64,000 nt of DNA from assembly GCF_044704955.1 (NCBI RefSeq), contig NC_091989.1, forward strand, positions 147,498,001-147,562,000, given 5' to 3'. Position numbers and translations under genes: made by a program. The notes under the pieces are model-generated. The model worked only from the letters and a program-made list of their open reading frames with translations, did not search any database and was not told the DNA's origin. This stretch comes from Pristiophorus japonicus (lineage: Eukaryota). Within the stretch, counting starts at the first letter, position 1; the number at the start of each line of letters is the position of its first letter. Positions 14,455 to 64,000 of this stretch are shown here, in pieces.

Positions 14455-14829
14455 AAGAGTGAACGGCACGTTTGACCGTTGCCTGGCCACTCTATCCCAC
14501 CATGTTGATTATTCCCCCTCTTGTTCTGCAAATGAGACACTACACAGGAATGGTTAAGGTGAACAAAATAATTTATTAATCATTGTAAACTTTAATAAAA
14601 TAACATAAATTAGCTGCATCCAGCAGTGCGATAATTCAACATTATGAACATAAATCAGAACATAATAAAACATAGGAATCATCTAGCATCAACAACGTAA
14701 ATGCAGCAATGCCTGCCCCACTATCTTTTATCAGCGGCTTTCCCCCACCCCTTACCCTTATCTCCCTCCCTTGCCTGCTGCTCCTAACCCAAGAGGTACC
14801 AAGATGTCATGAAGCAACGTTGTCAGAGC

Positions 14830-16767
14830 ACTGAGGTGGTGGCAGGTAGCATGCTGCGGGATGGAGTCGAGAACACTCGAGTCAAAGGCAGAATCTCGAT
14901 TGAGGATATCTTCGAAGTGCTCCTTCCAGCGGGCCCTGACTGCCTCGGTGTCCTTGATGAGTGTTTCCCCATTCTTGGCCAGCAGTGGGGTGGAGCCTTG
15001 GGTGTTTGGACCGCAGATGGCCTTGACTACGATGAAGAATCCTCGCACATCATGACTGTTGGCCAGTTGCTGTATTTCCTGTGCTTTCTCCATCCACCAC
15101 CTGTTCTTTAGGTCCCGAGTTTTTTGTTGGACCTCGGCCTTAAGCTGTCTGTAATGTTGCCTTGCTGCTCCCGAGTTGGGTTGTTGCTTTAAGTTCAGAA
15201 ATGCACTTGCGATCTATTAGCCTTTGGATCTCCTGGTCATTCTCGTCAAACCAGCCCTGGTGTTTCCTGGTTGAGTGACCGAGCGTCTCTTCGCAGGCAC
15301 TGGTTATGGAGGCCTGGAGGGCAGACTAAGCGCTGTGGGCATTCCGCGTCTTGGGGTTATCATCTTTTTACAGTGCAACAGCTGCAGGAAAAATGCAGGG
15401 AACAGCACCAGCCTTTATACATGGCCTTCTTCGACCTTACAAAGGCCTTTGACACTGTCAACCGCGAGGGTCTATGGAGCCTACTCCTCCGTTTCAGATG
15501 CCCCCAAAAGTTCGTCACCAACCTCCGCCTACTCCACAACGACATGCAGGCTGTGATCCTTACCAATGGATCCATTAACAGACTCAATCCACGTACGGAC
15601 TGGGGTCAAATGGGGCTGCGTCATCGCTCCAACCCTCTTCTCAATCTTCCTTGCTGCCATGCTCCACCTCAGTCAACAAGCTCCCCGCTGGAGTGGAACT
15701 AAACTACAGAACCAGTGGGAACCTGTTCAACCTTCGTCGTCTCCAGGCCAGGTCCAAGACCACTGCACCCTCTGTTGTCGAGCTACAGTACGCGGACAAT
15801 GCCTACGTCTGCGCACATACAGAGGCTGAACACCAAGTCATGGTCAACGTATTTACTGAGGCGTATAAAAGCATAGGCCTTACGCTAAACACTCGTAAGA
15901 CAAAGGTCCTCCACCAAGCTGTCCCTGCCGCACAGCACTGCCCCCCAGTCATCTAGATCCAAGGTTCGGACCTGGACAACATGAACCAGTCCCATACCTC
16001 AGGAACCTCTTATCAACAAGAGCAGACACTGACGACGAGATTCAACACCACCTCCAGTAAGCCAGTGCAGCCTTCGGCCGCCTGAGGAAAAGAGTGTTCG
16101 AAGACCAGGCCCTCAAATCTACCACCAAGCTCATGGTCTACAGGGCTGAAGTAATACCCACCTTCCTGTATGGTTCAGAGAAGTGGACCATGTACAGTAG
16201 ACACCTCAAGTCACTGGAGAAATACCACCAACGATGTCTCCGCAAGATCCTGCAATATCCCTGGGAGGACAGATGCACCAATGTTAGCGTCCTTGACCAG
16301 GCCAACATCCCCAACATTGAAGCACTGACCACACTTGATCAGCTCTGCTGGGCAGGCCACATTGTTCACAGGCCAGAAACAAGACTCCCAAAGCAAGCGC
16401 TCTACTCCGAACTCCTTAACGACAAATGAGCCAGAGGTGGGCAGAGGAGGCATTACAAGGACACCCTCAAAGATTTACTGATAAAGTGCAACATCCTCAC
16501 TGACACCTGGGCCAAAGACCGCCCTGTGTGGAGGAAGTGCATCCAGGAGGACGCTGAGCACCGAGTCTTATCGCCAAGAGCATGCAGAAATCAAGTGCAG
16601 ATAGCGGAAAGAGCGTGCAGCAAACCAGTCCCGCCCACCCTTTCCCTCAACGACTGTCCCACCTGTGACAGGGACTGTGGTTCTCATGTTGGACTGTTCA
16701 GACACCTAAGGACTCATTTTTAGAGTGGAAGCAAGTCTTCCTCGATTCTGAGGGACTACCTATGATG
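14830..16767 (+). mobile_element. RTE LINE with inverted 5' segment (~14830-15350 on -, ~15360-16767 on +)
   Basis: - part: KAQEIQQLANSHD..RWKEHFEDILN. + part: QLQEKCREQ..FFDLTKAFDTVNR, ELQYADN, WAGHIV, tail tatgatg. Confidence 0.88.
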
Positions 16768-17073
16768 TGTTAGGGGGAGAGACAATGGAAATGCCGCTTG
16801 AGGACACACTTTACCAGCTTGTAGCGTGGCAGGCCCGGCTCCTGACCAGCAAGCCTCTTAATCAGCTGATCTGTAAACTCGTCCTCTTCTTCCTCCTCCT
16901 CCTCACGGTGGCCTGACATGGAGTGTTGCTTTGAGGGATGCTGCGGCTGTGGCTGGTCACCTCAAAGTAGAAAGCAACAAACGAGTTGTTAGCAGCAGGG
17001 GAAGGGGTAGGATGACCTGAGGAAGGTCGCATAACACAGGCTCATTTGAAGGAGCGCCGCTACTCTATTATAT

Positions 17074-17439
17074 CTAGTCCACAGACACTGCATGACATTG
17101 CCCCAACCCTAGTCCACAGACACTGCATGACATTGCCCCAACCCTAGTCCACAGACACTACATGACATTGCCCCAACCCTAGTCCACAGACACTGCATGA
17201 CATTGCCTCAACTCTAGTCCACAGACATTGCATGACATTGCCCCAACTCTAGTCCACAGACACTGCGTGACATTGCCCCAACCCAAGTCCACAGACACTG
17301 CATGACATTGCCCCAACTCTAGTCCACAGACACTGCGTGACATTGCCCCAACCCTAGTCCACAGACACTGCATGACATTGCCCCAACCCTAGTCCACAGA
17401 CACTGCATGACATTGCCACAACCCTAGTCCACAGACACT
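17074..17439. repeat. 35-bp minisatellite, ~10.5 copies
   Basis: Unit ctagtccacagacactgcatgacattgccccaacc repeated head-to-tail with few substitutions. Confidence 0.95.
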
Positions 17440-18404
17440 CCATCACTCCAGCCCAGTGGGTGTGCAGGACTTACCCTCAGTATCCAAGCAGGGGTAAGCA
17501 CCCACAGTGGCGTTGTCCGACCTGAGACGCCGATGAGGCCTGCCACTCGCTACTCAAGGTCGGTGAGTGGACTGCCGCCTGTCTTCACCTGCTCGTGCCG
17601 ATTATGAGACTTCTTTGCCTGCAAAGATGAAAATGGGAATGGTTACAAGAGGGTTCATCTGCTCAGATAGCCACCAAAGTACTTATACCATATTGTCTGA
17701 ATGTAATACAGTCCTCTATTTAATGACCTTGGAATTTGCACGTGGTTCATTAGGAGGACATCGAAGTGTGGAGATATCTTATGAGATCTCAGAAAGCAAT
17801 TTTAATAATGTGTAAAGATCATTTATGGCAAATAGGGTGCCAAACTAAGCCGACCTGTGTGTCATGCATTTTAGGAGGCAACCCGCAGAGTGCTGAGAGG
17901 CAGCAACAGCATGAGAACAAATAGTGTGTCAGATTTATAATTGAAATAATGAAGGAGTACATGAATAAAAATTGTACTCACTCTAACGACCCTCGAAAGA
18001 TCATTGAATTTTTTTTCGGCATTGTGTGCCTTTCCTGACCACTGAGGCAGAGACCTCCGCAGCTATTTCTCTCCATGTGCATTTAAACATGGATGGCAGG
18101 GGTCTAGATCTGCCACAGCCCCCACTAGAGATTCGTTAGCCTCCTGGCTAAATCGCCTGGCAGGCTGTCTCGACTCCTCGTTCTCCATGATCAAAATCCA
18201 ATTTAAAAATGGCTGATTCAGCCCTGGGTGTACTGTGCATGCGTGTGGCCGTGCCCTGCATTTGCATTTGTGATATCTGACAGCAGACCAGAAGAAAAAA
18301 ACCATTTGCACATGCTCAGAACGCAACGGCCACCACACATTAAAAAAAATCCACGCACGGGCATCTTTCACCTCCTCAATTGGAGTTCAGGACTAGAACA
18401 TCGG

Positions 18405-20431: not shown

Positions 20432-20475
20432 ATAATGTGTCAAACTATTGACGATCCAGCAAATGCTTAAAAAAA

Positions 20476-21030
20476 TCATCATCATAGGCAGTCCCTCGGA
20501 ATCGAGGAAGACTTGCTTCCACTCTTAAAATGAGTCCTTAGGTGGCTGAACAGTCCAATACAAGAGCCACAGTCCCTGTCACAGATGGGACAGATAGTCG
20601 TTGAGGGAAAGGGTGGGTGGGACAGATTTGCCGCACGCTCTTTCCGCTGCCTGTGCTTGATTTCTGCATGCTCTCGGCGATGAGACGCGAGGTGCTCAGC
20701 GCCCTCCCAGATGCACTTCCTCCACTTAGTACGGTCTTTGGCCAGGGACTCCCAGGTGTCGGTGGGGATGTTGCACTTTATCAGGGAGGCTTTGAGGGTT
20801 TCCTTGTAACGTTTCCTCTGCCCACCTTTGCCGTGAAGGAGTTCTGAGTAGAGCGCTTGTTTTTGGAGCCTCATGTCTGTCATGCGGACAATGTGGCCTG
20901 CCCAGCGGAGCTGACCAAGTGTGGTCAGTGCTTCAATGCTGGGGATGTTGGTCTGGTCGAGGACGCTAATGTTAGTGCATCTGTCCTCCCAGGGGATTTG
21001 TAGGATCTTGGAGACATCATAGGTGGTACT
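20476..21030 (-). mobile_element. RTE LINE 3' fragment
   Basis: KQALYSELLHGKGGQRKRYKETLKASL..CPICDRDCGSCIGLFSHLRTH; catcatcat tail. Confidence 0.9.
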
Positions 21031-27035: not shown

Positions 27036-29747
27036 GCGAAAAGATCGAGAATAGGGTTGGCACGATGACGCAGCCCTGTTTGACCCCGATCCGGACGTGG
27101 TGGATCCGTTAGTCAGGATCACGGCTTCCATGTCGTTGTGGAGCAGGCAGATGATGGTGACAAACTTTTGGGGGCAACCGAAATGGAGGAGGGCACTCCA
27201 TAGTCCTTCACAGTTAACAGTGTCAAAGGTTTTTGTGAGGTCAAAGAAGGCCATGTACAAGGGTTGGTGCTGTTCCCTGCATTTCTCTTGCAGTTGTCGC
27301 ACCATGAAGATCATGTCCATTGTACACCGCAGCGGATAGAACCCGCACTCTGACTCTGGAAGGAGCTCCTCAGCCACAGGGAGAAGACGGCTGAGGAGGA
27401 TTCTAGCAATGACTTTCCCAGTGGCCAACAACAGGGAGATTCCTCTGTAGTTGTCGCAGTCGGACTTGTCCCCTTTTTTAAAGATGATCACGATTACTGC
27501 ATCTCTGAGATCTCCCGGCATGCTCTCCTCCTTCCAGATGAGAAAGATGAGATCATGCATTCATGTCAATAGTGCCTGTTTGCCATACTTTAGTGCCTCA
27601 GCCGGGATTCCATCCGCTCCCGATGTCTTGTTGTTCTTGAGCTGATGGATGGCCTTTTCTACCTTATGCAGGGCTGGGGTTTTGCTGAGATGGTGGCGGC
27701 TAGCATGCTGCGAGATGGAGTCGAGGACACTCGTGTCAAAAGCAGAGTCTCGATTAAGGAGATCTTCGAAGTGCTCCTTTCAGCAGGCTCTGACTACCTT
27801 GATGTCCTTGATGAGTGTCACCCCGTTCTTGGCCAGCAGTGGGGTAGGGCCTTGGGTGCTTGGGTCATAGGTGGACTTGACTGCGGTGAAGAATCCTCGC
27901 ACGTCATGGCTGTCGGCCAGCTGCTGAATCTCCTGTGTTTTCTCCACCCACCATCTATTCTTTAGGTCGCGGGGTTTTTGCCTTCAGCCATCTGTAGAGC
28001 TGTTTTGCTGCTCCCAAGTTGGGTTATTGCTTTAAGTTCAGAAATGCCCCGCGCTTACGGTTTATTAGCTCCTGGATCGCCTGATCATTTTCATCAAACC
28101 AGTCCTGGTGTTTCCTGGTTGAGTGACTGAGCGTCTCTTCGCAGGCACTGGTTATGGTAGCCTGGAGGGCAGACCAAGTGTTGTGGGCACTCTGCATCTT
28201 GAGGTCATCGAGGGTCGCCAGATTGGCAGTGAGGCGCTGGCTGTATAGGGTTTTCTTAGCTGGGTCTTTGAGTGCCCCAGTGTTCATTTTTCTGTGGCAT
28301 TACTTCTGCTGCCGTTGTCGTTTTGGGGCTATATTAATGTTGATGACCGGATTAGGCAGTGGTCCGTCCAGCAGTCGTCGGCTCCTGTCATGGCGCGGGT
28401 GATGCGCACGTCCTTGCGATTCCACGCTCGAACGATGATGTAGTTGAGCAGGTGCCAATGTTTGGAGCGAGGATATTGCCACGATGCCTTATACATGTCC
28501 CTCTGGCAGAACAAGGTGTTGGTTATGACAAAGTCGTGTTCTACCATTTTGTCAGGAGCAGGGTAACGCTGGAGTTGCTTTTCCCTACCCCGTCTAAGTT
28601 CCTCGCTGCTACGCTCCATCTCATGTTCAACAAGCTCCCCGCTGGAGTGGAACTAAACAATAGAACCAGTGGAAACGTGTTCAACCTTCGTCGCCTTCAG
28701 GCTAGGTCAAAGACCATCCCATCCTCTGTCGTCGAACTACAGTGCGCGGACGATGCTTGCGTCTGCGCACGTTCAGAGGCTGAACTTCAAGCCATCGTCA
28801 ACATCTTCACCGAGGCGTACGAAAGCATGGGCCTTACACGAAACATCCATAAGACAAAGGTCCTCCACCAACCTGACCCCGCCATACAGCATTGCCCCCA
28901 CGGTCATCAAAATCCACGGCACAGCCTTAGACAACATGGACCACTTTCCATACCATGGGAGCCTACCATCAGCAAGGGCAGACATCGATGACGAGGTCTA
29001 AAAACCGCCTCCAGTGTGCCAGCGTAGCCTTCGGTCACCTGAGGAAGAGAGTGCTCAAGGATCAGGCCCTCAAATCTGACACCACATTTATGGTCTACAG
29101 GGCTGTAGTGATACCCGCCCTCCTGTATGGCTCATATACAGCAGAGACTTCAAATCGCTGGAGAAATACCACCAACAATGGCTCCGCAAGATCCTGCAAA
29201 TCCCCTGGGAGGATAGACGCACCAACATCAGTGTTCTCGATCAGGCCAACATCCCCAGCATCGAAGCACTGACCACACTCGACCAGCTCCGTTGGGCAGG
29301 TCACATTGTCCGCATGCCCGACACAAGACTCCCAAAGCAAGCACTCTACTCAGAACTCCTACACGGCAAGCGAGCCCCAGGTGGGCAGAGGAAACGTTTC
29401 AAGAATATCCTCAAAGCCTCTTTGATAAAGTGCAACATCCCCACCGACACCTGGGAATCCCTGGCCAAAGACCACCCTAAATGGAGGAAGAGCATCTGGG
29501 AGGGCGCTGAGCACCTCGCGTCTCATCGCCGAGAATATGCAGAAACCCAGCGCAGGCAACGGAAAGAGCGTGCGGCAAACCAGACTCCCCACCCACCCTT
29601 TCCTTCAACGACTGTTTGTTCCTCTGTTCCACCTATGACAGAGACTGCAATTCCCGTATTGGACTGTTCAGTAACCTGAGAACTCACTTTTAGACTGGAA
29701 GCAAGTCTTCCTCAATTTCAAAGGACTGCCTATGATGATGATGATGA
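27036..29747 (+). mobile_element. RTE LINE with a 1.56-kb 5' inversion (27036-~28597 on -, ~28598-29747 on +)
   Basis: 11-bp TSD tcttaactgaa at 27025-27035 and 29748-29758; (ATG)n tail. The inverted part has the APE C-terminus and RT start (NYRGISLL, FFDLTKTFDTV); the direct part has ELQCADD and the C-terminus. Confidence 0.93.
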
Positions 29748-32700
29748 TCTTAACTGAAACAGCAGTTTGGTCAGATCACTCTTCCTAATATTTCTTTAGT
29801 CTGTTTTCCTTTTCTACGTTAAAAGTGCTATATAAATGCATGTTGTTGTTGAAATAAGAACCTCTGTAATTGACAATTAAAAGATATGAGTTTCAGTAAG
29901 TGAATAGATTTTTGATCCAGATTTTGCATGATCCAATGCATTTGAATCAGGCAAGGCAGGGATGAAACTAAAGATCATTTAAGCATTAGAAGAAATATTT
30001 TTCTCTTGATTCATTAATTTTCTATAATGAACAGAGACCTGCTAAATATTAATATTTCTCTGACTTTTTGTTACTGGAATTTTTAATAAAAGATAAATTC
30101 CAACTGTTTTGATGCAGGGTATCGATCTGAAACAATAGCCTTTCTTCACGTATCGATGCTGATGGATCTGGCATATAATTCTAGCATTTTCTTTGCCTTC
30201 ATTTACTTGTACCAAATGATGTAACATGTCAAAACAAATTGGTTTTTAGTTACCGGTTAACTGATCCGTCAGAAGATTCCCTGTTTGCTCAAGCACGAGT
30301 TTGCATGCCAAATTGCTGGTTCAGGTCAGAGAATATGTTTTCAACTGCCAAAGCATCTTTTTCTGCAAAATAAATTTTCCTTTTGACATTGTAATTAAAA
30401 TGCCAATTTTGTGAGCATATTGTATTTTATCACAGACATAAATTAAGATTTGTTGTCTGTGGCATTTATATCTTAATATGGTGACTAGTAGTGCTGTGTG
30501 ATTCAACTTCTGTTGAGGAACTTTAGAGGGGTGTGCTGGGCCAATTGCAGTTTACACTACATGCAGGCCATGCATAGTTTCTGATTTGATTTTCATTTGG
30601 TGCATGAAGATTGCAGATCTTTACAGATGATATTAAAAGGGCATATTTCAATAAAATCTCTTTGGTGAGAGATCAAACATACAAACTGATTCTGTTCCCC
30701 TTGGAACTTATTATTTAAACATTTGGGCCCTATTTTTGCTACGATTGTGCGCCGTTTTTGGGGTCCAAACGTTTTTTGGCGAGAAATCCTCCGTTTCCAA
30801 CTTTCACCAATGTTTTTACGCCGGTGCCGACCATGTGCAGCAGTTTAAACATTTTTGGCGCAGACACGAATAAAAACAGGCTCGGGCGCCGTTTTTGTGC
30901 AGCTAGGCGATTTTGGCCGTCCACAATTTTTTTCAGCATGGCGCACACTGCCAAAAAGTCCCGAAAAAAAAGTCTGTGAACTTAAGGAAATCGGCATGGT
31001 GCACAAAAGGACATTGGGGCCAAGCAAAAGATGACAAAATAAAGTACAAATGCATGGATTTGTTTCGACAGGGTACTCTGAAAATAACTCGGAAAGTAAT
31101 TTCCGAATTTTTGGAGTGAGACAATGTAAAAAACAAAAGTATAATTTTTTCAGAGGGAACTGAAGTAACTTTGCTGGGTTCTTTTTCATCCAAATCGCGA
31201 CAGTCCACCCCAACACAATTGTTGACCGGGATCCAGGCACGGGTCGAAGGAGTGCCAGCTGGGCAGGATCGCAAGCTCGACTGGACACAAGCAACAGAGC
31301 CCGGCTGCTTTTGAAGCTGAGTGTCGAGTCGTTGTGCTTCTGTCCGGCCGAGCTTGCGATCCTGCCTGGCCAGCACTCCTTCGACTTGTGCCTCAAGCTC
31401 GATCAGCATCCGAAACAGGATGTTTTGTGCACAGGCATAGCAGCAAGCTAGAAGTTACCATTTGTCACAGGTGACCCAAGCAAACAAGCAAATGCATTCG
31501 CAGTTCAGGTGTGGTTCGATCTAGGGCGTCACTCAGCCTTGTGGAGCAAAACAGAGAGGAAAGATGTCAGATTTAAGTATTTATCTGCATAACAATAATA
31601 ATGGATGCAATTTTTAGCATGCCTGATGTGATACAGGCGTTGGCCATACATGGCGTGCAGAGGCAACGAATAATTCAACGCTGATATCGGGGAGACAGAT
31701 TGATGGGGAGGAGACCTTACCCATAGCGAGTCTATAGGGAGAGGCGCTCATACTTGAAACTGAGTGAGGCAGGCTGTGATTCAGAAAGGAGGTCATCACT
31801 GAGATCTGCCAACTAATCAGGGCAGACATACTGCCAAGAAGTGGAAGGAGGACTGCCCTACCTGAAGAGGTAAAGATAATAGCGGCACTTGCCTTCTATG
31901 CTACGGGATCATTTCAAGCTTCAACTGGGGATGTATGCTCGATCTCGCAGCATGCCGCCCATTGCTGCATTTGCCAGGTGACTGCTGCACTGTTTACCAA
32001 AAGGGACCAATTTATCACTTTCCCTATGACCACGCAGGCAATGAGATACAGGGCTGTGGGATTCTCCAGAATTGCTGGCTTCCCCAGTGTACAGAGTGCC
32101 ATTGACTGTATTTTTGTGTATGGAGAAAGAGTCAGACTGAACACTGTGAGCTCAAAGTAAAGTGTGACCTTAGTCTTTTATTGCAGGTCTCCAGAGTGCC
32201 TCTCTAACCTGTGAAGCCTTCTTAAATACCTGTGCTCCCAAGGGATTATGGGAACCCTTTGGAATCCGGGGAATGAGCCCTCTGGTGGCTGTACAGAGTA
32301 AATACAAGTCCACATATATAACAACATTCCCCCCCAAAGTCAATAGTGTAACTATTTACAATGTGAGTTGATCTGGGGCCCTTCTTGCCCTGGTTGATCG
32401 TCACATTGTGAAAGCTGGTGTTGTTGAATCATTTGTTGGGCCCTCGCTGGCTGCTGTGCAGCTGGCCTTGCTGGGCTGCCTGGTGTATTGGGCCCTGCAG
32501 GGCTGCTGTGGATGATGGGTTCTGCTTCGTGGTCAACCGTGGTGTCGGTTGCCACTGGTGTGTATGTTGGGAGATCAAAAAAGGTAGGGTCCAAGGTGGG
32601 TTGCTCAGGGTAGTCTGTGAATCTGAGTATGATTTGGTCCAAGTGTTTCCGGTGAATGAGTCCATTTGAAAGTTTGACCTGAAACACCCTCTTTTACCAC

Positions 32701-35700
32701 GACAGTGCCGGGAAGCCACTTGGGACCTTGTCCATAATTTAATACAAATACAGGATTATTGACTTCAATCTTGTGTGACACATTTGCGCTATCATGGTAT
32801 GCACTTTGTTGAAGCCGCCTGCTCTCTACCTGTTCATGTAGATCAGAGTGAACTAACGAGAGCCGTGTCTTAAGTGCTCTTTTCATGAGCAGTTCAGAAG
32901 GTGGGATCCCAGTCTCGTGCGGTAGCTAAGCAGGACTCGGGATAGGCAAGTCTGCAGTGAGCCTTCAGTTACCCTCTTCAAGCCTTGCTTGATAGTTTGC
33001 ACTGCTCTCTCTGCCTGACCATTGGATGCTGGTTTAAACGGGGCAGATGTGACATGTTTGATCCCGTTATGGGTCATGAATTCTTTGAACTCAGCACTGG
33101 TAAAACATGGGCCGTTGTCGCTCACCAGGACATCGGGTAAGCTGTGTGTGGCAAACATGGCCCGCAGGCTTTCAGTGGTGGCAGCGGACGTGCCAGCCGA
33201 CATTATCTCACATTCAATCCACTAGGCGTAGGTGTCTACAACCACAAGAAACATTTTACCCAAGATCGTAGTCAACGTGTACCTAGACCATGGTTTGGAG
33301 GACCAAGACCATAAACTTAGTGGCGCCTCCCTGGGTACATTGCTTAACTGCGAGCATGTATTACATCTGTGAACACAGGACTTTAAGTCCGCATCGACAC
33401 CGGGCCACCACACGTGGGATCTGGCTATCACTTTCATCATTACGATGCCTGGGTGGGTACTGTGGAGGTCATTGATGAAGGTGTCTCTGCCCTTCTTCGG
33501 GACCACTACTCGATTACCCCACAGAAAGCAGTCTGCCTGTATAGACATTTCATCTTTGCGCCGCTGGAACGGCTTTATCTCTTCCTGCATTTCCACTGGG
33601 ACACTGGACCCAGCTCCCATGAAGCACACAGCTTTTGACTAGAGATAATAAGGGGTCCTGGCTTGTCCAGGTTTTAATCTGCCGGACAGTGATGGGTGAT
33701 TGCTCACTCTCAAATGCTTCCATATCCATGGCTAGATCTGCGGGCTGCGCCATTTCCACCCGCGTGGTGGGCAATGGCAGCCTGCTGAGAGCATCGGCGC
33801 AGTTTTCTATGTCTGGCCTGTGGTGGATGGCGTAGTTGTATGCGGACAACGTGAACGCCCATCTCTGAATGCAGGCCGATGCGTTGGTATTTACCTCTGT
33901 ACTCTCGGAAAACAGGGATATAAGTGGCTTATGGTCAGTTTCCAATTCAAATTTTAGCCCAAACAGGTATTGATGCATTTACTTTACCCCATAGACACAC
34001 GCTAACGCTTCTTTTTCAATCATGCTGTAGGCTCTCTCGACCTTAGACAGACTCCTGGGTGCATAAGCAACCGGTTGCAGTTTCCCGAAATCATTAGCTT
34101 GTTGCAATACACACCCGACGCCATATGACGACGCATCACATGCTAGTACCAAATGCTTGCATGGATCATACAACACAAGCAATTTGTTTGAGCATAACAA
34201 TTTTCTCGCTTTTACAAAGGCATTTTCTTGGCTTTTGCCCCAAATCCATTCGCCCCCTTTTCATAGTGGTTTTATCAGGGTGCTGAGACCCGGTAAGAAG
34301 TTACCAAAGTAGTTCAAGGGTCCCAGAAACGACCGCAGCTCCGTCACGTTCTGTGGCCTCGGTGCGTTCTCGATTGCCTCCGTCTTTGCGTTGATGGGCC
34401 TGATGCCGTCCGCCGCAATCCTCCTTCCCAGGAACTCCACTTCAGGTGCCAGGAAAACACACTTCGAGCATTTTAACCTGAGCCCCACGCGGTTGACTCG
34501 ACTAAGAACCTCCTCCAGGTTCTGTAGGTGCTCGACTGTGTTCCGACCTGTGACCAAGATGTCGTCCTGGAAAACCTTGGTGCGCGGGACCGAGTTCAGT
34601 AAACTTTCCATGTTTCTCTGGAATATCGCCGCCGCTGATCGGATTCCAAACAGGCATCTGTTATAAACAAAAAAAAACCTTTGTGCGTGTTGATACAGGT
34701 GAGGGCCTTTGATGATTCCTCCAGTTCCTCTGTCATGTAGGTTGAAGTCAAATCCAGCTTTGTGAGCATCTTTCCTCCCGCCAGCATTGCAAAGAGGTCA
34801 TCGGCTTTTGGTAGTGGATATTGGTCCTGCATGGAGAAACAATTGATAGTTACTTTGTAATCGCCACAGATTCTGATGGTGCCACCACCCTTGAAGACTG
34901 GGACAATAGGACTGGCCCACTCGCTGAACTCAATCTGTGAAATGATGCCCTCTCGTTGCAGCCGGTCTAGCTCGATCTCTACCCTTTCTCTCATCATGTA
35001 TAGTACTGCTCTCGCCTTGTGATGGATGGGTCGCGCCCCCGGAATTAGGTGGGTCTGCACTTTTGCTCCTTGGAATTTCCCGATGCCTGGTTCGAACAGC
35101 AAAGGAAATTTGTTTAAGACCTGGCCACATGAAATGTCGTCAGCGGGCGTCGTCCCAGTTCCAGCATATCTTTCCCAGCCAGCTCCTGCCGAGCAGCGTG
35201 GGACCATCGTCTGGTACCACCCAGAGTGGTAGCTTGTGCACCGATGCGTTGTAGGCGGCCTTTACGGTAGCACTGCCGATTACAGGGATCAGTTCTTTAG
35301 TGTATGTTCTTAGTCTCGTGCGAACGGGAGTTAAGACTGGCCTTGAGTCCTTGTTGCACCACAACCGTTCGAAAGTCTTTTTGCCCATGATGGACTGGCT
35401 CACGCCCGTGTCCAGCTCCATTGACACCGGGAGTCCATTTAGTCCAACATTCAGCATTATCAGGGGACAATTCGTGTTGAATGTGTGCACCCCATATACC
35501 TCTGTCTCCTCTGTCTGAGGCTCTGGTTCGTAGTGATCCTCCTCTGCAACGTGGTGATTTGCAGGCTTAACAGGCTTTGCAGCTCGCCTGCACACTCGTT
35601 GGAGGTGTCCCATTGTTCCACAGCCCTTGCAAATGTATCCTTTGAATCGGCATGCATGGAAATGATGATCACACCCGCAGCGCCAACAAGGTGTTAATGG

Positions 35701-35962
35701 CCTTGCATTCATCGCCCTTGATGGTGGACTCTGCGACATCTGCGGACGTGTAGCTGCAGGTATGTGTGACCTGCACTGTACATTACGATTCGAAAACATC
35801 ACTTTGTTCACAGTACTTGTAGCAGCACTTGTGTGCTGAGAGATTTGCTTAGTATTGTCACTGATGGCAAAGAACGTCTGGGCTGTCGCCAAGACTTTAC
35901 TTAAGGTCGGGGGTCTCTACAGTCAAAAGCTTGCGAAGTATGGTTTCGTGGCCAATGCCAAA

Positions 35963-36599
35963 TGTAAGGGGAAAATGGGAAGGCTTCTCCTCCCACAAGC
36001 GGGCCCCCTGATATAGAGGGTCGACGCTCGCCCCAACCCGCGTAACAGCCCCCAGAGTTAGCAGACAGAGACGAATGGCAAGGTATAACGATCTTTTATT
36101 GCGAACGTCCGGGAACACCTCTCATCACAGCCGCCTGTGAGTGGAGATGCTCTCCGAACAGCACAATCATACAACTTTTATACATTTCAAAAATCCCTCC
36201 GTTCCCTGGTAAGACCTCCCTAGATCTCTAATTGGACTACCTTATCAGTGCTACTTCTCTAATTGGACTACCTTATTAGTGCTACTTTGGATTGACAGGC
36301 CAAGACCCTCGTGACCACCTTAGGCCATGACTAGAATGACTTCATTAGGTCAGAATTTGTTGATTCTCCTTGATGCCCGTGAGTCTGCCTCGAGCCTCTT
36401 CGCAAGGTCTTATCAATGTCTGTTTAGGTTCTCACATCGTATCCTGTCGGAATATTATTGAATTAATAACTTCTGGAGCCTTGGTACTGGAATGTACAAG
36501 GCCAAAGAGAGGCCTTTTACGTCCTTATGGGTCGGTGCAGGAACCAGCACTTTAACCCTTGTCCCGCTGGTATCCCTAATGCCAAATGTTTCTCTTATA
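35963..36599 (-). repeat. 3' LTR of the env-carrying element (637 bp, with a ~30-bp internal tandem duplication)
   Basis: Direct repeat of 40691-41294. On the - strand: CCAAT boxes (~36230, ~36261), TATAAAA (~36176-36182), AATAAA (~36094-36099). Confidence 0.93.
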
Positions 36600-36612
36600 T
36601 TTCCCCCCTTTT
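36600..36612 (-). promoter_or_regulatory. Polypurine tract
   Basis: aaaaggggggaaa on - directly abutting the 3' LTR. Confidence 0.88.
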
Positions 36613-36745
36613 GGCCCTTGGCTATACGCCAAAGCTAGCCATATTTCCCGATAACTATCTCCCTGTAGGCAAGTTCCAGATCGGTCCATTCACCTGGGTG
36701 GCTATCTCCCAAGCTTTGGGACCTCCTGAGACCTTTCCCGCAGAG

Positions 36746-38200
36746 TTATATAAGGTAAGTCCTTCCTGTGGGACTGCTTAAATTTTCATCCCTTATGACC
36801 TTAATCATAGTGTGTGCCCTGACGTATTGTTTGGCCTGTTTAATTCGTGCACAGGTTAGCCCTACCAGTACCATCAGGACCAGGCCTTGTATTACTACAA
36901 GTGCATGTGATATAATTCTTATCCATGGGTGGATCTGAATATTAAGTCCAATGTTCCACAGTTTTGAGTACCAAGGCTGGTTGGCCAGCATCGCGTTAGT
37001 GTCTTTTTGTAGGTTTGTCTATTTCTTCCATCAGCTGGATATTGCACCAATCGTTCCTCACTTAATTCGGGTATCTGTTTTTCTTGTGGTTCCCATATTG
37101 CTTCCTTGTACCCTTCTCGGAGGGTATCCATGACCGTTCCGTGGATGATTTCCGTTGTCTCGGGATGTATGTGGTATCAATTTATGTCTATTTTTCCCAT
37201 GGGCCTGAAACAGAAGTTAGGGTTGGTGATGACACAGGGGGTGACTCCTCCCCTGGTCTTAATCGTCGGGTTGGCTACTCCTGTGCTCACGCACCAAATC
37301 TCCATTCCCTTGTGGAACAGTGATTTGTTTCGGAATCGTGTTCGAGAGGAGTGATACTCAGCATGCATCCGTTTGTTTGGTGGAATCTGAAATCATTATT
37401 CGTCATTTGTGGCGTACCTCGACATAAAATCACTTGATTATTTTTATAGTAATCGATTTGTCAATGCCTTTCGTACTAATTTAATTTTAATCACCGGTCT
37501 GGCAGGCTGATGGTAACGCAACCGAGTTTGGTTTCTTACTTCACCGATATTATCGATCTAGTATAAGGGGTTTCCCTTTGTTACATCATACTGTGGTATG
37601 GACAACACAAATCCGATCATATTCACCCGCCCAGTAATGCATCTGAATTTTGGCACCCATGTGTGACTATTCCTTCGTACCTCGCACGTGTTATTGTTAA
37701 GTATGCTGTTCGGGATCCAATCTGCTATGTCCCCATTCTGGAGTTGCTCCAAGTTATGTTGTACTTCACTTAATATCCAGGCCCCATACCCGGAGCAAAT
37801 TATCTCAGCTTGTAATCATTTAATTATGTCGTTTCCCATTGCGTGGATCTAATTTATTGTCTTGGCATGCTTCTGTAATGTATGGGCCACCTGTAACAGT
37901 TCCCCTTCCCCGCCATCTCCCAACCACACTTTTAGGGCTTGGTTATCCATGTCCCTCCCCAGTAAACCCCTCAAGATTTGCGTTAAGTTGTTAACCCGGT
38001 CGTCTATTGCATACAGGTCTATGGAATTCATCATCGTAACCCCCGCCGCATAACCCGTGCCTAGTGTTTCCAGTATTCCCCTTTTTGTTCGACCTTATCC
38101 TGTTCCCTTTCTGACATTAAATCTCAGGGTAATGGATTCCGGGCCTTCGAGGATTCTTTGTGTCAGGTTCTGGTATAGACTTATTTCAGAGACCTCCCTT
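36746..38200 (-). pseudogene. Envelope (class I fusion glycoprotein) pseudogene with an F-protein-like layout
   Basis: RTKR (38080-38091) then GILETLGTGYAAGVTMMNSIDL, heptad-like helix (AIDDRVNNLTQILRGLL), IICSGYGAWILSEVQHNLEQLQNG, IGFVLSIP..PLY..NIG, Cys-containing region, Trp-rich membrane-proximal QPWYSKLW, TM IISHALVVIQGLVLMVLVGLTC, short tail. Several stops and frameshifts. Confidence 0.85.
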
Positions 38201-40670
38201 GGTCTTCATTTTATCCCACTGGCCAGTTTTCCTAAACGTCCTGGGGTCCCACCCCCCTTTTTGCTCCGTTCTGTTCCCACCCTTTTGTTTCTTGTGGGGT
38301 GGTTTTGGCTGCTTGTTTTGCAGCTTTGTCCGTCCAGCTTTTAACTCTTGAATTCGTTTTGAGTATCTGTCTTTTATTTGTATCAGGCGAGTATTATTAC
38401 ATAGGCTAGTTCTGTTTTTATTTTTATTCTGACTATCCCACCATTTCCTCTATCTGTCAGGTGAGTCTTTTTTATTCTATTAAGAAATCCAAATTAATAA
38501 TGTCCAGTATAAAACAGCTGTCAATGGAAAGGGTTAACTCCCTTACAGGTTTGTAAGAAGGCCTGATGTCATTACGTGACTTTGCGTAATCATCCGAAAT
38601 TGTTTCCAGTCTTTGTGCCTTCAAAACTTGCTTAGAAATTAGGAATCTGTTAAAACAGCAGAAATCATTAGTAAAACCGTCATAATAAAAGTCTTATCAG
38701 GAAAGACGGCATTTTAGACTAAACTCCAATTTTTTTCTTAACTTCTAATTCAAGTACTTGATAAAGATTATTTTTTAATTGATTTAAAACGAGACCACAC
38801 ATTTTTAATAGCTATTTTGTTTACTGAAATCCAATTTTCACACAAGCTGTATACATTCCAAATTTCGTTTTTTTTTTACGGTCCCGTTCACTGGGCAAAT
38901 CTTGTATTTTATTTCTCTCTCAGCACAAAATCTAAACATCGGTGCCAGTTCCATTTTCTATAAGAATTTTAAAATTCAGTAAGATTCTCTAATTCCCAGT
39001 TTCTTTTCTTTCTGTGCTGAGTTCGCATAGCTTAGATCTTTTTTCCTCGTTATTTTCAAAACCCTCCTGCTTGTTTAGACTGTTCGGGACTTTTCTTGAT
39101 AAACAACGTCCATTTTGGAAATCTTTCAAACTGCAGTGAAACTTTCTCATAACTTAAAATCATTATCAATGGAGAGTGTCCCTTACCTCTTCAAATTCTT
39201 TTTTTTCAATTAAACCAATATCTTTTTCACAGCCGATATCAACTACTATTTAGCAAGTTATGTCTTTTTCCATCGCAAACACCCCTTTTTTTTGTCAGCA
39301 CCTATTTAGTACATTACGTCTTTTTTTAAGATCTCTTTTCTTCAAATTAGGTTTGTATTTTACATGGAGGGCTCCTGTCTGCGTAAATTTGTTAATTTAA
39401 AATCAGACGACAATCGAAGACACTTTTTCTTTCAAATTCATTCAATTTGTTTTCTTTCAAAGTTGCGTCTTTATCTTTTTTTCTTTTCTCCATAACTAGA
39501 ACGGAGTCTAGCACATAGGCTTTGAGGGCTGCTTTTCGTTATCTCAAATGTTCCAGTTTCAAGGTCGTTACAATGTCCTTTTTTCTAAACTGCTAAAGCT
39601 TGCCGTTTTAAATTTTTTTTTTCAAAAGTCCCTTTTACACCTTCACAGATAGCTCGCCACTCGTCCAGGAGTTTGACCTGATCCCTGAAGGTGTTTCTAG
39701 ATTGTTTCCAAACCTTTTAGTTCTTTTTCCTTTTTTTTTTAAAGAGATCAGATTTAATATATATTTTTTTTAGTTTGAATCCATCTCAGTATTTTGCTGT
39801 GCCTTCTCTTAATATCTCAAAATCCCAATTCAAATTTTGTAATGCCAATCTTTTATTTCCTAGCTCCGTAACTTATCATCCGAATAAATCCACACCTGCG
39901 TTTCTAACTTAAAGCTTCCTACATACAGGACAACACCAAACAGGCTTTCAGACACAAGAAAAATTCATTCCGCAGTCAAAAAAAAATCACACAAGGACTC
40001 TCACTCAACGACAGACATTTACAAAAGTCTCTTTTTATTCAACAAAGCTTATTCATTGTTTGGCCGGCTCTATTTTTTTTGGATCCATATGTCACTTAAG
40101 ATAGTCACTATCAGCTTTTTTATGGCATTACGTGGTTATGCAAGTTACAATTAATGATTGGTTTTATTCGCCTTTTTAATAGCCGTGTTACCCATCTTCT
40201 TCGGGGCTATGAGGGTCTTGGGCACTCCCTTTAATTCATGTTAGGTATGCAGGACGTTATTTATATCTATATGTCTTCCCTTGGCGCCGTACACTCGTAC
40301 TGCCACGCTTTGGGTCAATATATCCCGTCACTGCGGGGACGTCGTCTCCATGTCCTCAATCTCTCGTCCCTGCACCGTGTGCTCGTACCGCTTCGGGTCA
40401 ATAGACCTTCCTCTAGATCTTCCCTTGCGTCATACCCTCGCACTGCCGTGCTACCTCCATGCACGCATTTTAGGATGCACCTTTTGACCCCCTTCTACCC
40501 CTAGATCGTCCCTGTCCTCCGTCTCCATCCCTCCTGGACCTGCTACAAATGGTTCTTTGTACAGATGTCCTTCCCTTGCGGTTTACAATGCCACAGCTCT
40601 AACTTGAAGGTGGTAAATTAAAACATACTCACCCCAACAGCTGGGTCATTGTTCCGTTCGGGAAGTCCGC

Positions 40671-40688
40671 ACCCTGCTCGCAGCGCCA
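40671..40688 (-). promoter_or_regulatory. Primer-binding site, tRNA-Ser
   Basis: TGGCGCTGCGAGCAGGGT, 2 nt from the 5' LTR; complementary to the 3' end of vertebrate tRNA-Ser(UGA/CGA) as I recall it (about one mismatch). Confidence 0.85.
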
Positions 40689-40690
40689 AA

Positions 40691-41294
40691 TGTAAGGGGA
40701 AAATGGGAAGGCTTCTCCTCCCACGAGCGGGCCCCCTGATATAGAGGGTCGACGCTTGCCCCAACCCGCGTAACAGCCCCCGGAGTTAGCAGATAGAAAC
40801 GAATGGCAAGGTATAACGATCTTTTATTGCGAACGTCCGGGAACATCTCATCACAGCCGCCTGTGAGTGGAGATGCTCTCCGAACAGCACAATCATACAA
40901 CTTTTATACATTTCAAAAATCCCTCCATTCCCTGGTAAGACCTCCCTAGATCTCTAATTGGACTACCTTATTAATGCTACTTTGGATTGACAGGCCAAGG
41001 CCCTCATGACCACCTTAGGCAGTGACTAGAATGACTTCATTAGGTCAGAATTTGTTGATTCTCCTTGATGCCCGTGAGTCTGCCTCGAGCCTCTTCGCAA
41101 GGTCTTATCAATGTTTGTTTAGGTTCTCACATCGTATCCTGTCGGAATATTATTAAATTAATAACTTCTGGAGCCTTGGTAGTGGAATGTACAAGGCTAA
41201 AGAGAGGCCTTTTATGTCCTTATGGGTCGGTGCAGGAACCAGCACTTTAACCCATGTCCCGCTGGTACCCCTAATGCCAAATTTTTCTCTTACA
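40691..41294 (-). repeat. 5' LTR of the env-carrying element (604 bp)
   Basis: TGTAAG...CTTACA; roughly 20 substitutions versus the 3' LTR by eye. Confidence 0.93.
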
Positions 41295-42649
41295 CCAAGT
41301 ACAAAAAAGTCTTTGAGCATGTGCTCCAAATGTCCTTCAAATTCGCAATGTCCTGCAAGGCGTCTCAGCTCGGCGACATAACTCGCCACTTCCTCGCCTT
41401 CAGACCTTTTGTAGGTACCTACAAAAGGAACCGGTATCTCACCATCAGAACGCTTTCCTTCAGGTTCAAATGCTCTCGGACCAGTGTGCACAAATCGTCG
41501 TACGATTTCTCCATGGGTTTCGCTGGAGTGAGCAGATTCTTCATGAGGCCATACGTTGGTGCCCCACAGACGGTGAGGAGGATCGCTCTAACTTTGGCAG
41601 TGCTCTCTTCCCCATCTAGCTCATTGGCCACGAAGTATTGGTCAAGTCGCTCCACAAAAGTTTCCCAATCATCTCCCTCCGAAAATTTCTCCAGGATGCC
41701 CACTGTTCTCTGCATCTTTGGGTTCTCTATCTGTATCTTGTCGCCAGTTGTTGTGTATGGAGAAAGAGTCAGACTGAACACTGTGAGCTCAAAGTAAAGT
41801 GTGACCGTAGTCTTTTATTGCAGGTCTCCAGAGTGCCTCTCCAACCTGTGAAGCCTTTTTAAATAACTGTGCTCCCAAGTGATTATGGGATCCCTTGGAA
41901 CTCTGGGGAATGAGCCCTCTGGTGGCTGTACAGAGTAAATACAAGTCCACATATATAACAGTACCCACATCACCTTGAGAGCACCGGAGCTGCCAGAAGG
42001 ACAGAGCTGGTTACTCGGGGACAAAGGTTACGGGCTCGCCACCTGGCTTATGACCCCCACCACGCAAACCCCGCACTAAGACAGAGCGTCAGTACAATAT
42101 GTCCCACATAACGACACGTAGCATCACAGAGAGGACAATTGGTCTTTTAAAGCAGCATTTCCGATGCCTGGACCACTCTGGAGGCTACCTGCAATACCAT
42201 GTCATTCAGTTCACTGTCATGTGCTGCATGCTGCACAACTTGGCCATCATGAGGAGACAGGTACTGGACATTGAAGATCCTCCTGAGGGGAGAAGGAGGG
42301 ATGAGGATTTGAAGGAGGTTGACGAGGAGGAGGAGGACCAACAGTAGGAGGAGGAACCACCTCAAGCCGCAGGACGACGGCGGAGGAGGATGGGGGCGAC
42401 CAAGAGGACCTATAGCCATTGCTAGACACTTGCGTCAGTGGCTAATCCGTGAACGTTTTTCTGCCTGAAGGCTAAACGGCGGCATGTTTGATTATAGTGT
42501 TGCACCATGACTGTTTACACTTTGTTACACTTTTAATAATGTTGTGTTGGTTTCTGTTGATCTAATATATACTGTTGGTTAAATTCACAAAATAATGTGC
42601 TGATTCTGGTTAAATTAAAATAATAGGTTGATTAAACATTTGTACATTT

Positions 42650-51844: not shown

Positions 51845-52395
51845 GCCTCCCCTGTCTCCTGGCCGAATGGCCTGTAGCCTATAAAATTAACTTCACTGCT
51901 GTGAAGGCTGCTGCATATTGCCTGTGTGTGTGGCCCCAACCAAGTCCCCTTTCTCCTGGCCGAACGGCCTGAAGCTTCATAGCTCGAAGGCTGCTGCTGC
52001 CGTCTCTGTGGGTGGCCTGACGCCGCCCCTGTGCCCTGGCCGAATGGCCTGAAGCTCCGCAGCTCGAAGGCTCTGCTGCCGTCGTTGGACTGACGCCGCC
52101 CCTGTGCCCTGACCGAATGGCCTGAAGCTCCGCAGCTTGAAGGCTGCTGCTGACGTCTCTGTGGGTGACCTGACGCCGCCTCTGTCCCCTGACCGAATGG
52201 CCTAAAGCTCCGCAGCTCAAAGGCTGCTGCTGCCATCGTTGGGCTGCTGTCGTTGGACTGATGCTACCCCTGTCTCCTGAATGAATGGCCTGAAGCTCCG
52301 CAGCTTGAAGGCTGCTGTTGCCGTCGTTGGACTGACGCCGCCCGCCTCCTGGATGAACGGCCTGAAGCTCCACAGCTCTAAGGCGGCGGCTGCTG
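51845..52395. repeat. Degenerate ~70-80-bp tandem repeat in the Harbinger D transposase upstream region
   Basis: Recurrent ccgaatggcctgaagctccgcagctcgaaggctgctgctgccgtc...ctgacgccgcccctgt, about 6-7 units. Confidence 0.85.
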
Positions 52396-61189: not shown

Positions 61190-64000
61190 TGTTGTGTATG
61201 GAGAAAGAGTCAGACAACACTGTGAGCTCAAAGTAAAATGTGACCTTAGTCTTTTATTGCAGGTCTCCAGAGTGTGTCTCCAACCTGTGAAGCCTCCTTA
61301 AATAACTACTCCCAAGGGATTATGGGATCCCTTGGGTCTCCAGGGGTTGAGTCCTCTGGTGGCTGTACAGAGTAAATACAAGTCTTATATATAAAACAAC
61401 ACTCACCTGCCCTCCCCCCCCCCCCCCCCCCCCCCAAGTCAATAGTGTAACTATTTACAATGTGAGTCGATCTGGGGCCCTTCTTGTCCTGGTTGATTGT
61501 GTCGGTGTGAAAGCTGGTATTGTTGAATCATTTGTTGGGCCGTCGCTGGGCTGCTGTGTAGCTGACCTTGCTGGGCTGCCTGGTGTGTTGGGCCCTGCAG
61601 GACTGCTGTGGATGATGGGTTCTGCTTCGTGGTCAACCGTGGTGCTGGTTGCCACTGGTGTGTATGTTGGGGGTCAAAAAAGGTAGGGTCCAAGGTGGGT
61701 TGCTCAGGATAGTCCATGAATCTGAGTTTGATTTGGTCCAAGTGTTTCCGGTGAATGAGTCCATTTGAAAGTTTGACCCGAATCACTCTGCTCCCCTCTT
61801 TGGCCACGACAGTGCCGGGAAGCCACTTGGGACCTTGTCCATAATTTAATACAAATACAGGATCATTGATTTCAATCTCTCGTGACACATTTGCGCTATC
61901 ATGGTATGCACTTTGTTGAAGCCGCCTGCTCTCTGTCTGTTCATGTAGATCAGGGTGAACTAACGAGAGTCTTGTCTTAAGTGCTCTTTTCATGAGCAGT
62001 TCAGCAGGTGGGATCCCAGTGAGTGTGGGGTCTCGTGCGGTAACTAAGCAGGACTCTGGATAGGTGAGTCTGTAGTGAGCCTTCAGTTACCCTCTTCAAG
62101 CCTTGCTTGATGGTTTGCACAGCTCTCGCTGCCTGACCATTGGACGCTGGTTTAAATGGGGCAGATGTGACATGTTTGATCCCGTTACGGGTCATGAATT
62201 CTTTGAGCTCAGCACTGGTAAAACATGGCCAGTTGTCACTCACTCGGGTAGACCGTGTGTGACAACCATGGCCCGCAGGCTTTCAGTAGTGGCAGCGGAC
62301 ATGCTAGCCAATATTATCTCTCATTCAATCCACTTGGAGTTCGCGTCTATAACCACAAGGAACATTTTACCCAAGAACGGGCCTGCATAGTCGACGTGTA
62401 CCCTAGACCACAGTTTGGAGGGCGAAGACCATAAACTTAGCGGCGCCTCCCTGGGTACATTGCTTAACCGTGAGCATTTATTACATCTGTGAACGCAGGA
62501 CTCCAAGTCCGCATCGATACCGGGCCACCACACATGGGATCTGGCTATCGCTTTCATCATTACAATGCCTGGGTGGGTACTGTGGAGGTCATTGATGAAG
62601 ATGTCTCTGCCCTTCTTCGGGACCACTACTCGATTGTCCCACAGAAGGCAGTCTGTCTGTATGGACATTTCCTCTCTGCGCCGCTGGAACGGCTTTATCT
62701 CTTCCTGCATTTCCACTGGGACACTGAACCAGTTCCAGTGAAGCACACATTTTTTGACTGGAGATAATAAGAGGTCCTGGCTTGTCCAGCTTTTGATCTG
62801 CCGGGCAGTGATGGGTGATTGCTCACTCTCAAATGCTTTCATAACCGTGGCTAGATCTGCGGGCTGCGCCATTTCCACCCCCGTGGTGGGCAATGGCAGC
62901 CTACTGAGCGCATCGGCGTAGTTTTCTGTGCCTGGCCTGTGGCAGATGGCGTAGTTGTATGCAGACAATGTGAGCGCCCATCTCTGGATGCGGGCCGATG
63001 AGTTGGTATTTATCTCTTTCCTCTCCGAGAACACGGATATAAGTGGCTTATGGTCAGTTTCCAATTCGAATTTTAGCCCAAACAGGTATTGATGCATTTT
63101 CTTTACCCCATAGACACACGCTAACGCTTCTTTCTCAATCATGCTGTAGACTCTCTCAGCTTTAGACAGACTCCTGGATGCATAAGCAACCGGTTGCAGT
63201 TTCTCGAAATCATTAGCTTGTTGCAATACACACCTGATGCCATATGACGATGCATCACATGCTAGTACCAAACGCTTACATGGATCATACAACACAAGCA
63301 ATTTGTTTGAGCATAACAATTTTCTCGCTTTTACAAAGACATTTTCTTGGCTTTTGCCCCAAACCCATTCGTCCCTTTTTCGTAGTAAGACATGCAGTGG
63401 TTCTAGCAGTGTGCTGAGACCCGGTAAGAAGTTACCAAAGTAGTTAGAGTCCCAGAAACGACCGCAGCTCTGTCACTTTCTGTGGTCTCGGTGCGTTCTC
63501 AATTGCCTCTGTCTTCGCGTTGGTGGGCCTGATGCCGTCCGCTACAATCCTCCTTCCCAGGAACTCCACTTCAGGCGCCAGGAAAACGCACTTTGACCGT
63601 TTTCCCCTGAGCCCCACGCAATTGAATCGACTAAGAACCTCCTCCAGGTTCTGCAGATGCTCGAGTGTGTTCCGACTTGTGATCAACATGTCGTCCTGGA
63701 AGACCACGGTGTGCGGGACCGACTTCAGTAAGCTTTCCACGTTTCTCTGGAATATCGCCGCCGCTGATTGGATTCCAAGCGGGTATCTGTTATAAACAAA
63801 AAGACCCTTATGCATGTTGATGCAGGTGAGACCCTTCGATGATTCCTCCATTTCCTGCGTCATGTAGGCTGAAGTCAGATCCAGCTTCGTGAACGTCTTT
63901 CCTCCCGCCAGCATTGCAAAGAGGTCGTCGGCCTTTGGTAGTGGGTATTGGTCCTGCAGGGAGAAACGATTGATAGTTACTTTGTAATCTCCTCAGATTC
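61190..64000 (-). mobile_element. Second copy of the Mag-clade Gypsy element (3' LTR 61190-~61398, IN, RNase H, RT), antisense in a TDRD12 intron; runs off the window
   Basis: Collinear and highly similar to 32112-34870; VFQDD, CDASSYG, ETDHKPL, RVHVDYAGPF; frameshifts and stops. Confidence 0.95.

Follow-up and report, generated by a model that had tools for sequence, protein, structure and literature searches.

The gamma-type retroviral envelope protein (Env), as defined in the excerpted text of PMC9967133, carries an ISD (CKS-17) followed by a CX6CC motif in a short transmembrane subunit. Retroviral Envs resembling the fusion (F) proteins of paramyxoviruses and pneumoviruses have been published for foamy viruses (PMC11468914) and for lokiretroviruses (PMC7947760), in the sections of these two studies considered here. 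Among the endogenous retroviruses (ERVs) of cartilaginous fishes, lineage I of the CmiERVs of elephant shark is placed in a cluster with snakehead retrovirus (SnRV) in the excerpted text of Han 2015 (PMC4422223).

The locus considered here lies in a window of 64,000 nucleotides of the genome of the shark Pristiophorus japonicus, i.e. the whole stretch of DNA that was analysed. With a probability of roughly 0.8 we read it as what is left of a broken env in a multi-copy shark ERV without pol, whose Env is predicted to adopt the F-type fold of paramyxoviruses and pneumoviruses and whose parent virus was likely SnRV-like and not a lokiretrovirus. The provirus that holds this remnant is 5.3 kb long, lies on the minus strand and is nested in the gag of a Gypsy-type LTR retrotransposon (32111..41960, minus strand), which it splits and which is itself delimited by an LTR pair and recognized by protease, RT, RNase H and integrase matches. 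The provirus is bounded by a 5' LTR of 604 bp with TG...CA termini (40691..41294, minus strand) and a 3' LTR of 637 bp (35963..36599, minus strand), flanked by a 5-bp target-site duplication with one mismatch (35958..35962, partner 41295-41299). A polypurine tract (36600..36612, minus strand) and an 18-nt primer-binding site (PBS) complementary to the 3' end of the host tRNA-Ser(TGA) (40671..40688, minus strand) are also present. The PBS-complement pattern occurs 72 times in the shark's own genome against 0 for the control, and tRNA-Ser(tga) was called by ARAGORN in 4 of the 8 such loci checked; there is no tRNA gene within the 64-kb window. Hence, LTRs, a tRNA PBS, a polypurine tract and a short target-site duplication, the elements expected of a retrovirus, are all found in this element or its family. 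The K2P distance between its two LTRs is 0.032, which a mammalian rate converts into about 7 My and the shark rate adopted in the relevant part of Han 2015 (PMC4422223) into about 70 My, and the age of the provirus is loose because of the gap between these two rates.

The interior of the provirus opens with a decayed gag start (40170..40195, minus strand), at which homology to full-length relatives stops. In place of most of gag there stands an A-rich 1.7-kb segment (38470..40170, minus strand; 39% A on the sense strand) with no recognizable coding content and with no Pfam match in any of its 6 frames, which by blastn is common to a pol-less element bearing the env of a sister lineage. An smc-like ORF in this segment was considered and rejected, as it lacked Pfam support. 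The segment is followed by a small gag remnant and a pol remnant from the RNase H/integrase junction (38253..38467, minus strand; tblastn and blastn to full-length relatives), the remainder of pol being absent. Elsewhere in the window a second Gypsy-type copy (61216-64000) is 88-94% alike to that at 32111-41960, and a 35-bp minisatellite lies at 17003-17527 and a 72-88-bp tandem array at 51946-52393. Dispersed related repeats in both orientations (159-863, 3850-4580, 14800-16770, 20475-21010 and 27040-29740) are likely LINE fragments, with a weak endonuclease match at 159-860.

Translation of the minus strand recovered a furin-type cleavage site, RTKR, at 38080..38091, where an R-x-K/R-R motif is kept in shark homologues. 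It is preceded by what remains of the surface subunit's F2-like end (38092..38184, minus strand), delineated by translation and alignment to relatives, and followed by a broken F1-like transmembrane subunit (36749..38079, minus strand), for which a structure model was additionally used. The latter begins with GILETLGTGYAAGVTMMNSIDL (GILE directly after RTKR) at 38079 and extends over 443.7 codons to the stop at 36748-36746, close to the 445 or so codons estimated in an earlier, sequence-only reading of this DNA. It comprises, in order, a fusion peptide, long N-terminal helices, a beta/Cys-rich middle, a damaged C-terminal heptad, a Trp-rich segment (about 36923-36979, minus strand), a hydrophobic TM of 19 aa (36848-36904, minus strand; mean KD 2.5) and a tail of 34 aa. 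Thus, the domain layout given in that reading is recovered in its Trp-rich segment, TM and tail, but the C-terminal heptad region is partly missing. Its view of a single frame interrupted by stops has to be replaced by one of 4 in-frame stops together with at least 3 frame changes (near 37440-37500, 37290-37330 and 37030-37060). The first codon of the window env is equivalent to codon 238 of a 731-codon natural relative, which confirms that the signal segment and the larger part of the N-terminal subunit have been lost, as proposed. A stop-free natural relative aligns with it over 386 aa (69% identity) and over 89 aa (82% identity), and the likeness is therefore not due to chance. The absence of CKS-17 and CX6CC remarked upon earlier also holds more widely, with neither an ISD-like (CKS-17) nor a CX6CC motif in the two window segments scanned or in 3/3 full-length natural Envs, so that the gamma-type definition applies to none of them. 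As such, the copy in the window is a dead ERV fossil of an ordinary kind and has no function of its own.

Sequence and profile searches of Pfam and PDB recovered no match to any fusion protein, and no fusion-protein Pfam match was found among 18 shark homologues. In particular, none of the 29 members of the Env alignment matched PF00523 (Fusion_gly) at E-values up to 1, which lowers only membership at the profile level. A word-based search with the X-read window segment likewise had no match among longer proteins. However, the furin site, fusion peptide, two heptads and TM occur in the order typical of F proteins, and a structural model pointed in the same direction. The AlphaFold2 model from the 29-row alignment of natural sequences is poor (pLDDT 48, pTM 0.37), and shows a strand-strand-helix unit, the cleavage site, long helices, a beta region and a further long helix. 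Foldseek searches of PDB with this model recovered 201 matches at E <=0.001, and 29/29 of the matches listed are F proteins of RSV, hMPV or henipaviruses (best E 1.2e-7), with TM-scores of only 0.18-0.26 and rmsd of 26-39 A. In BFVD the top matches are mononegavirus glycoproteins, paramyxovirus F0, baculovirus F and the Envs of WDSV and WEHV-1 (E about 2e-6 for these walleye Envs), with feline foamy Env weaker at E 0.011. VIA-align superimposed 186-263 residues on several F chains (Z 5.2-6.5) and 195 residues on foamy Env (Z 7.1, rmsd 9.4); its wide search was headed by unrelated helical bundles, and the Z values of the fusogens fall within the range of common arrangements. On the model, which speaks in favour of a DI-DII-DIII core, the Env is likely to possess an F-type fold of the paramyxovirus/pneumovirus kind. 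The structure matches to F proteins, together with the absence of gamma motifs, support the reading of the window env as a predicted class I fusogen with a long F1-like subunit, as opposed to a gamma-type TM. The similarity to class I viral fusion proteins on which the sequence-only reading had staked its proposal thus surfaces in structural matches of a low-confidence model but in no profile match.

The WDSV and WEHV-1 Envs score like paramyxovirus F against the model in BFVD, and this suggests that the walleye epsilonretrovirus Env may also be F-type.

Full-length Envs of the parent lineage additionally possess an N-terminal domain that is absent from the window, i.e. a Cys/beta-rich region of about 165 aa on a Thr-rich stalk. 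An Ig Pfam match for it was absent in 9/9 copies, there was one nanobody match at E 0.66, and its model reached a pLDDT of 31. The six-helix-bundle mechanism of membrane fusion is established in general, and the Env of the parent virus can be envisaged as using it. The protein would be made from a spliced RNA and then cut by furin at RTKR; the N-terminal domain on its stalk would bind a receptor, the F2-like segment and F1-like subunit would build a trimeric F core, and the two heptads would refold into the six-helix bundle to drive fusion.

The family of the window copy was sampled by a DNA search, with 1510 candidates and 40 scored copies including that of the window, the 39 others being 89-96% identical to it. 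Room for pol is missing in 39/39 of the other loci, of which a typical copy is about 6.3 kb; two further stretches present in such copies are absent from the window copy. None of the 40 copies reaches env codons 1-164, one or more frameshifts fall in the post-cleavage part of every copy (40/40), and 23-36 of the 40 have in common the lesions near codons 400, 480 and 620-640. These shared lesions and the general loss of the N-terminus make it very likely, as judged from the alignments, that the env was already dead in the founder of the family. A piece of sister-lineage env is carried by 36/40 copies. LTR pairs were measurable in 22/40 copies (median K2P 0.048), and among the 17 copies with both flanks readable the target-site duplication is an exact 5 bp in 9, an exact 4 bp in 5 and neither in 3. 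One pol-less locus in the same genome combines sister-lineage env with the A-rich segment of the window family, with a tandem repeat upstream, and is likely related to the donor of the family's 5' part. A plausible history is that recombination between two lineages gave rise to an element from which pol and the env N-terminus were lost, and that this pol-less recombinant was then copied in trans by helper proviruses sharing its PBS.

A protein search with a natural stop-free env stretch yielded 18167 candidates, of which 117 were scored and 20 loci, picked for long open frames, were fetched. Most of these parental (lineage-A) loci measure about 9.3 kb, and in their LTRs and env they share about 80% DNA identity with the window. 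Their full-length organization is gag-pro-RT-tether-RNase H-IN-env, with a YVDD motif in the RT and two CCHC knuckles in Gag, and gag and pol share a reading frame, separated by a single stop. The retroviral succession of PR, RT, tether, second RNase H and IN with a downstream env is therefore complete in these relatives, and only a remnant of it survives in the window. All 20/20 copies span the whole env and 5/20 are unbroken after the cleavage site, where the subunit in full-length Envs is about 459 aa; the env is open from a signal-like segment to the C-terminus in 2/20 (the motif finder failed in 5). The possibility of intact paralogues raised in the sequence-only reading is thus realized in the uninterrupted env frames of related proviruses. 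No Met precedes the signal-like segment in 15/15 readable copies, which makes a spliced env start likely.

Pairwise dN/dS was computed over codons 273-600, a single deleted lineage-A copy being excluded. It amounted to 0.23 among the parents, 0.56 among members of the window family and 0.22 for comparisons of one group with the other, giving a net value of 0.14 (bootstrap 0.11-0.23). Given this net value, the env was constrained while the virus replicated, and judging by these substitution patterns it was under viral-type purifying selection between lineages. The parent values are biased downward by the choice of copies, and that of 0.23 within lineage A was set aside as evidence for host selection because these had been picked for protein similarity.

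Two sister env lineages, 31% and 25% identical, are likewise abundant in their own genome. Among 16 fetched loci of these lineages 7 have a measurable terminal repeat and 2 have identical LTRs, and in some gag, pol and env are all open. One of the two has a PBS for another isoacceptor of tRNA-Ser, and in some of its copies the LTRs are identical and gag, pol and env are all uninterrupted. The identical LTRs in this sister lineage suggest a very recent germline invasion in the shark. An exhaustive HMMER search of 1.84 billion representatives recovered 18 Env homologues, all labelled as shark proteins, from the genera Pristiophorus, Mustelus, Chiloscyllium, Heterodontus and Scyliorhinus; that labelled Pristiophorus japonicus has a 100% match in its own genome.

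Such open frames bring up the question of whether the shark has taken over some env paralogue of this family to serve it as a fusogen or as a restriction factor; intact paralogues had been proposed earlier as candidate co-opted fusogens. In its favor, uninterrupted env frames of at least 700 aa exist in three lineages, some copies have an open env while pol is broken or absent, and in other sharks several of the homologues have been annotated as gene models with isoforms. However, the open copies had been selected as the top protein matches among thousands of candidates, their age is young (median LTR K2P 0.025 and 0.004), and their frames lie inside multi-copy, LTR-bounded proviruses with an LTR divergence of 0 to about 6%. 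Further, just the 2/20 lineage-A copies noted above are open end to end, and the window family is env-dead in 40/40. A bullhead-shark probe found at best a match of 41% identity with a stop (125 scored), and a catshark probe, in a stricter first look, had no match at E <=1e-20. Hence, the usual signature of co-option, an intact ORF under purifying selection at an orthologous locus across species, was not encountered, with the window copy broken and the two cross-species probes devoid of an orthologue-like locus. This probing was narrow, being confined to two sharks, and a domesticated copy may exist elsewhere. A literature search, with most subscription journals outside its range, found no paper on a co-opted shark env. 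In sum, these comparisons revealed no sign of env co-option by the shark, and such an event is quite improbable; the open frames are those of young multi-copy proviruses.

The class of the parent virus was approached through its pol. Among solved structures, the MLV RT matches the pol stretch best (343 bits), followed by foamy (208) and Ty3 (179). By eye, a 103-residue RT block has about 57 identities to SnRV, 57 to CmiERV-I, 46 to WDSV, 43 to Loki-Pma and 40 to HERV-L, the RT and RNase H having been compared with the published alignments contained in part of the supplement of PMC7947760. The RT motifs NSPxWPVxKPDG and DIxNGFW are of the SnRV type, RVPQGFHNSPG and YPIVASP as well as the RNase H motif GALEGxxSAQVAELVAL are SnRV-like, and the RNase H motifs in general match SnRV/WDSV and MLV rather than the lokiretroviruses, which are marked by an RNase H of the foamy group and a CGIN1-like integrase. 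In a 25-row RT tree the three shark lineages, ENA/Logan RTs, a bullhead-shark RT, a frog RT and a bird ERV are set apart from a loki-motif RT at 99/95. This tree has a single loki-motif RT and is without named SnRV, WDSV or loki sequences, so that the virus class rests on the counts made by eye. No RT relative was found in viral_contigs.

Taken alone, the MLV RT as the top PDB match of pol would suggest a class I virus, and the single frame of gag and pol with one stop between, the structural matches to WDSV and WEHV-1 Env and the resemblance of the RNase H motifs to WDSV too would all fit an epsilon-like parent with a WDSV-type Env. However, the RT block has about 46/103 identities to WDSV versus 57 to SnRV, the NSPxWPVxKPDG and DIxNGFW motifs are wanting in the epsilon-like CmiERVs, and PDB presumably holds no SnRV RT that could compete with that of MLV. 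We accordingly regard an epsilon-like parent as very unlikely.

Also very unlikely is the reading that the element is a lokiretrovirus that extends this lineage to cartilaginous fishes: lokiretroviruses do have an F-like Env with RXKR as well as a dual RNase H (PMC7947760, excerpted text) and YVDD and DxANGFW in the RT are in common with loki consensus sequences, but the loki RT reads RCPFGYxNSPA and LSRWPM and the loki RNase H VYVDGCS...KxSQYAE in the available alignments where the parent has SnRV-like motifs, the loki-motif RT falls outside the shark RTs at 99/95, the complete loki Env in the accessible part of the supplement of PMC7947760 has a short N-terminal subunit only, PF00523 is described as matched by loki Env and is not matched by the shark Env, and Wang and Han, in the portion of PMC7947760 concerned, report 0 lokiretrovirus matches in 6 chondrichthyan genomes. 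By its motifs, and by the tree with its one loki-motif RT, the parent RT does not belong to the loki clade that is sister to all other retroviruses. Accordingly, of the F1-like layout and lokiretrovirus link put forward in the sequence-only reading, the F-type subunit stands by its structure matches and lack of gamma motifs, but the link gives way to the SnRV/CmiERV-I-like RT and RNase H, the extra N-terminal domain and the lack of PF00523. An SnRV-like virus is the likely best placement of the parent as far as these motifs indicate, with an Env that would be loki- or foamy-like in its workings and an element that is not classed as a lokiretrovirus.

What appears to be new here is the predicted F-type Env on an SnRV-like shark pol, the probable exchange of env and the very recent activity; F-like retroviral Envs as such were already known. 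A search of the literature, with most subscription journals beyond its coverage, found no paper on an F-type Env in shark or SnRV-like ERVs. Like CmiERV-I, as described in the excerpted text of PMC4422223, the shark family has a chondrichthyan host and an LTR-gag-pol-env layout of about 9.3-9.6 kb, and it shares RT motifs and about 57/103 core-block identities (by eye) with both CmiERV-I and SnRV. The CmiERV-I PBS, in the published part available, is identical to that of sister lineage B. However, the CmiERV-I Env (scaffold 2, by eye, in the same partial source) has a gamma-type LQNRMALD motif and CX6CC, whereas the shark Env has neither and is F-like. Given this gamma-type Env, env was likely exchanged within the SnRV/CmiERV-I-like group, as far as can be read from these motifs. 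OVEX1, according to the description in parts of PMC2717909, is likewise associated with an SnRV/class III-related pol and has an ORF3 without CWLC, CKS17 or CX6CC, but it is single-copy and conserved between birds, whereas the shark family is high-copy and decaying.

With the loki Env, as set out in the relevant passages of PMC7947760, the shark Env shares a signal, RXKR, a fusion peptide, a coiled coil, a long post-cleavage subunit and a TM; it differs in its RT/RNase H lineage, in the extra N-terminal domain of ~165 aa and in lacking a PF00523 match. Its predicted core, in which an F2-like strand and helix are combined with F1 domains, is reminiscent of foamy Env and of paramyxovirus/pneumovirus F (class Ib) as presented in the consulted sections of PMC11468914. 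However, unlike foamy Env as described there, it has no leader peptide with a first TM, and its extra domain lies before the F2-like part instead of being inserted within SU; also unlike foamy viruses as covered there, CCHC knuckles are present in the Gag, and gag shares its frame with pol. The walleye (WDSV/WEHV-1) Envs, which the excerpted text of PMC9967133 describes without gamma-type hallmarks, are alike in their structural matches at E about 2e-6, but are 1159-1317 aa versus about 730, have no detected sequence similarity and go with a more distant RT. The occurrence of a predicted F-type Env on an SnRV-like shark pol beside a shark relative with a gamma-type Env bears on the question raised by Wang and Han, in the part of PMC7947760 considered, as to the ancestral type of Env and the number of times that it was swapped. 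We tentatively propose, as a possibility that we hold to be rather less than even, that sharks host a large, still-invading SnRV-like group, in which an F-type fusogen Env with its own N-terminal binding domain and a gamma-type Env were exchanged within a single RT clade. With the Envs of foamy viruses, lokiretroviruses and walleye viruses F-like as well, retroviral envelopes could have had the F fold ancestrally, and the gamma-type Env could be a later replacement.
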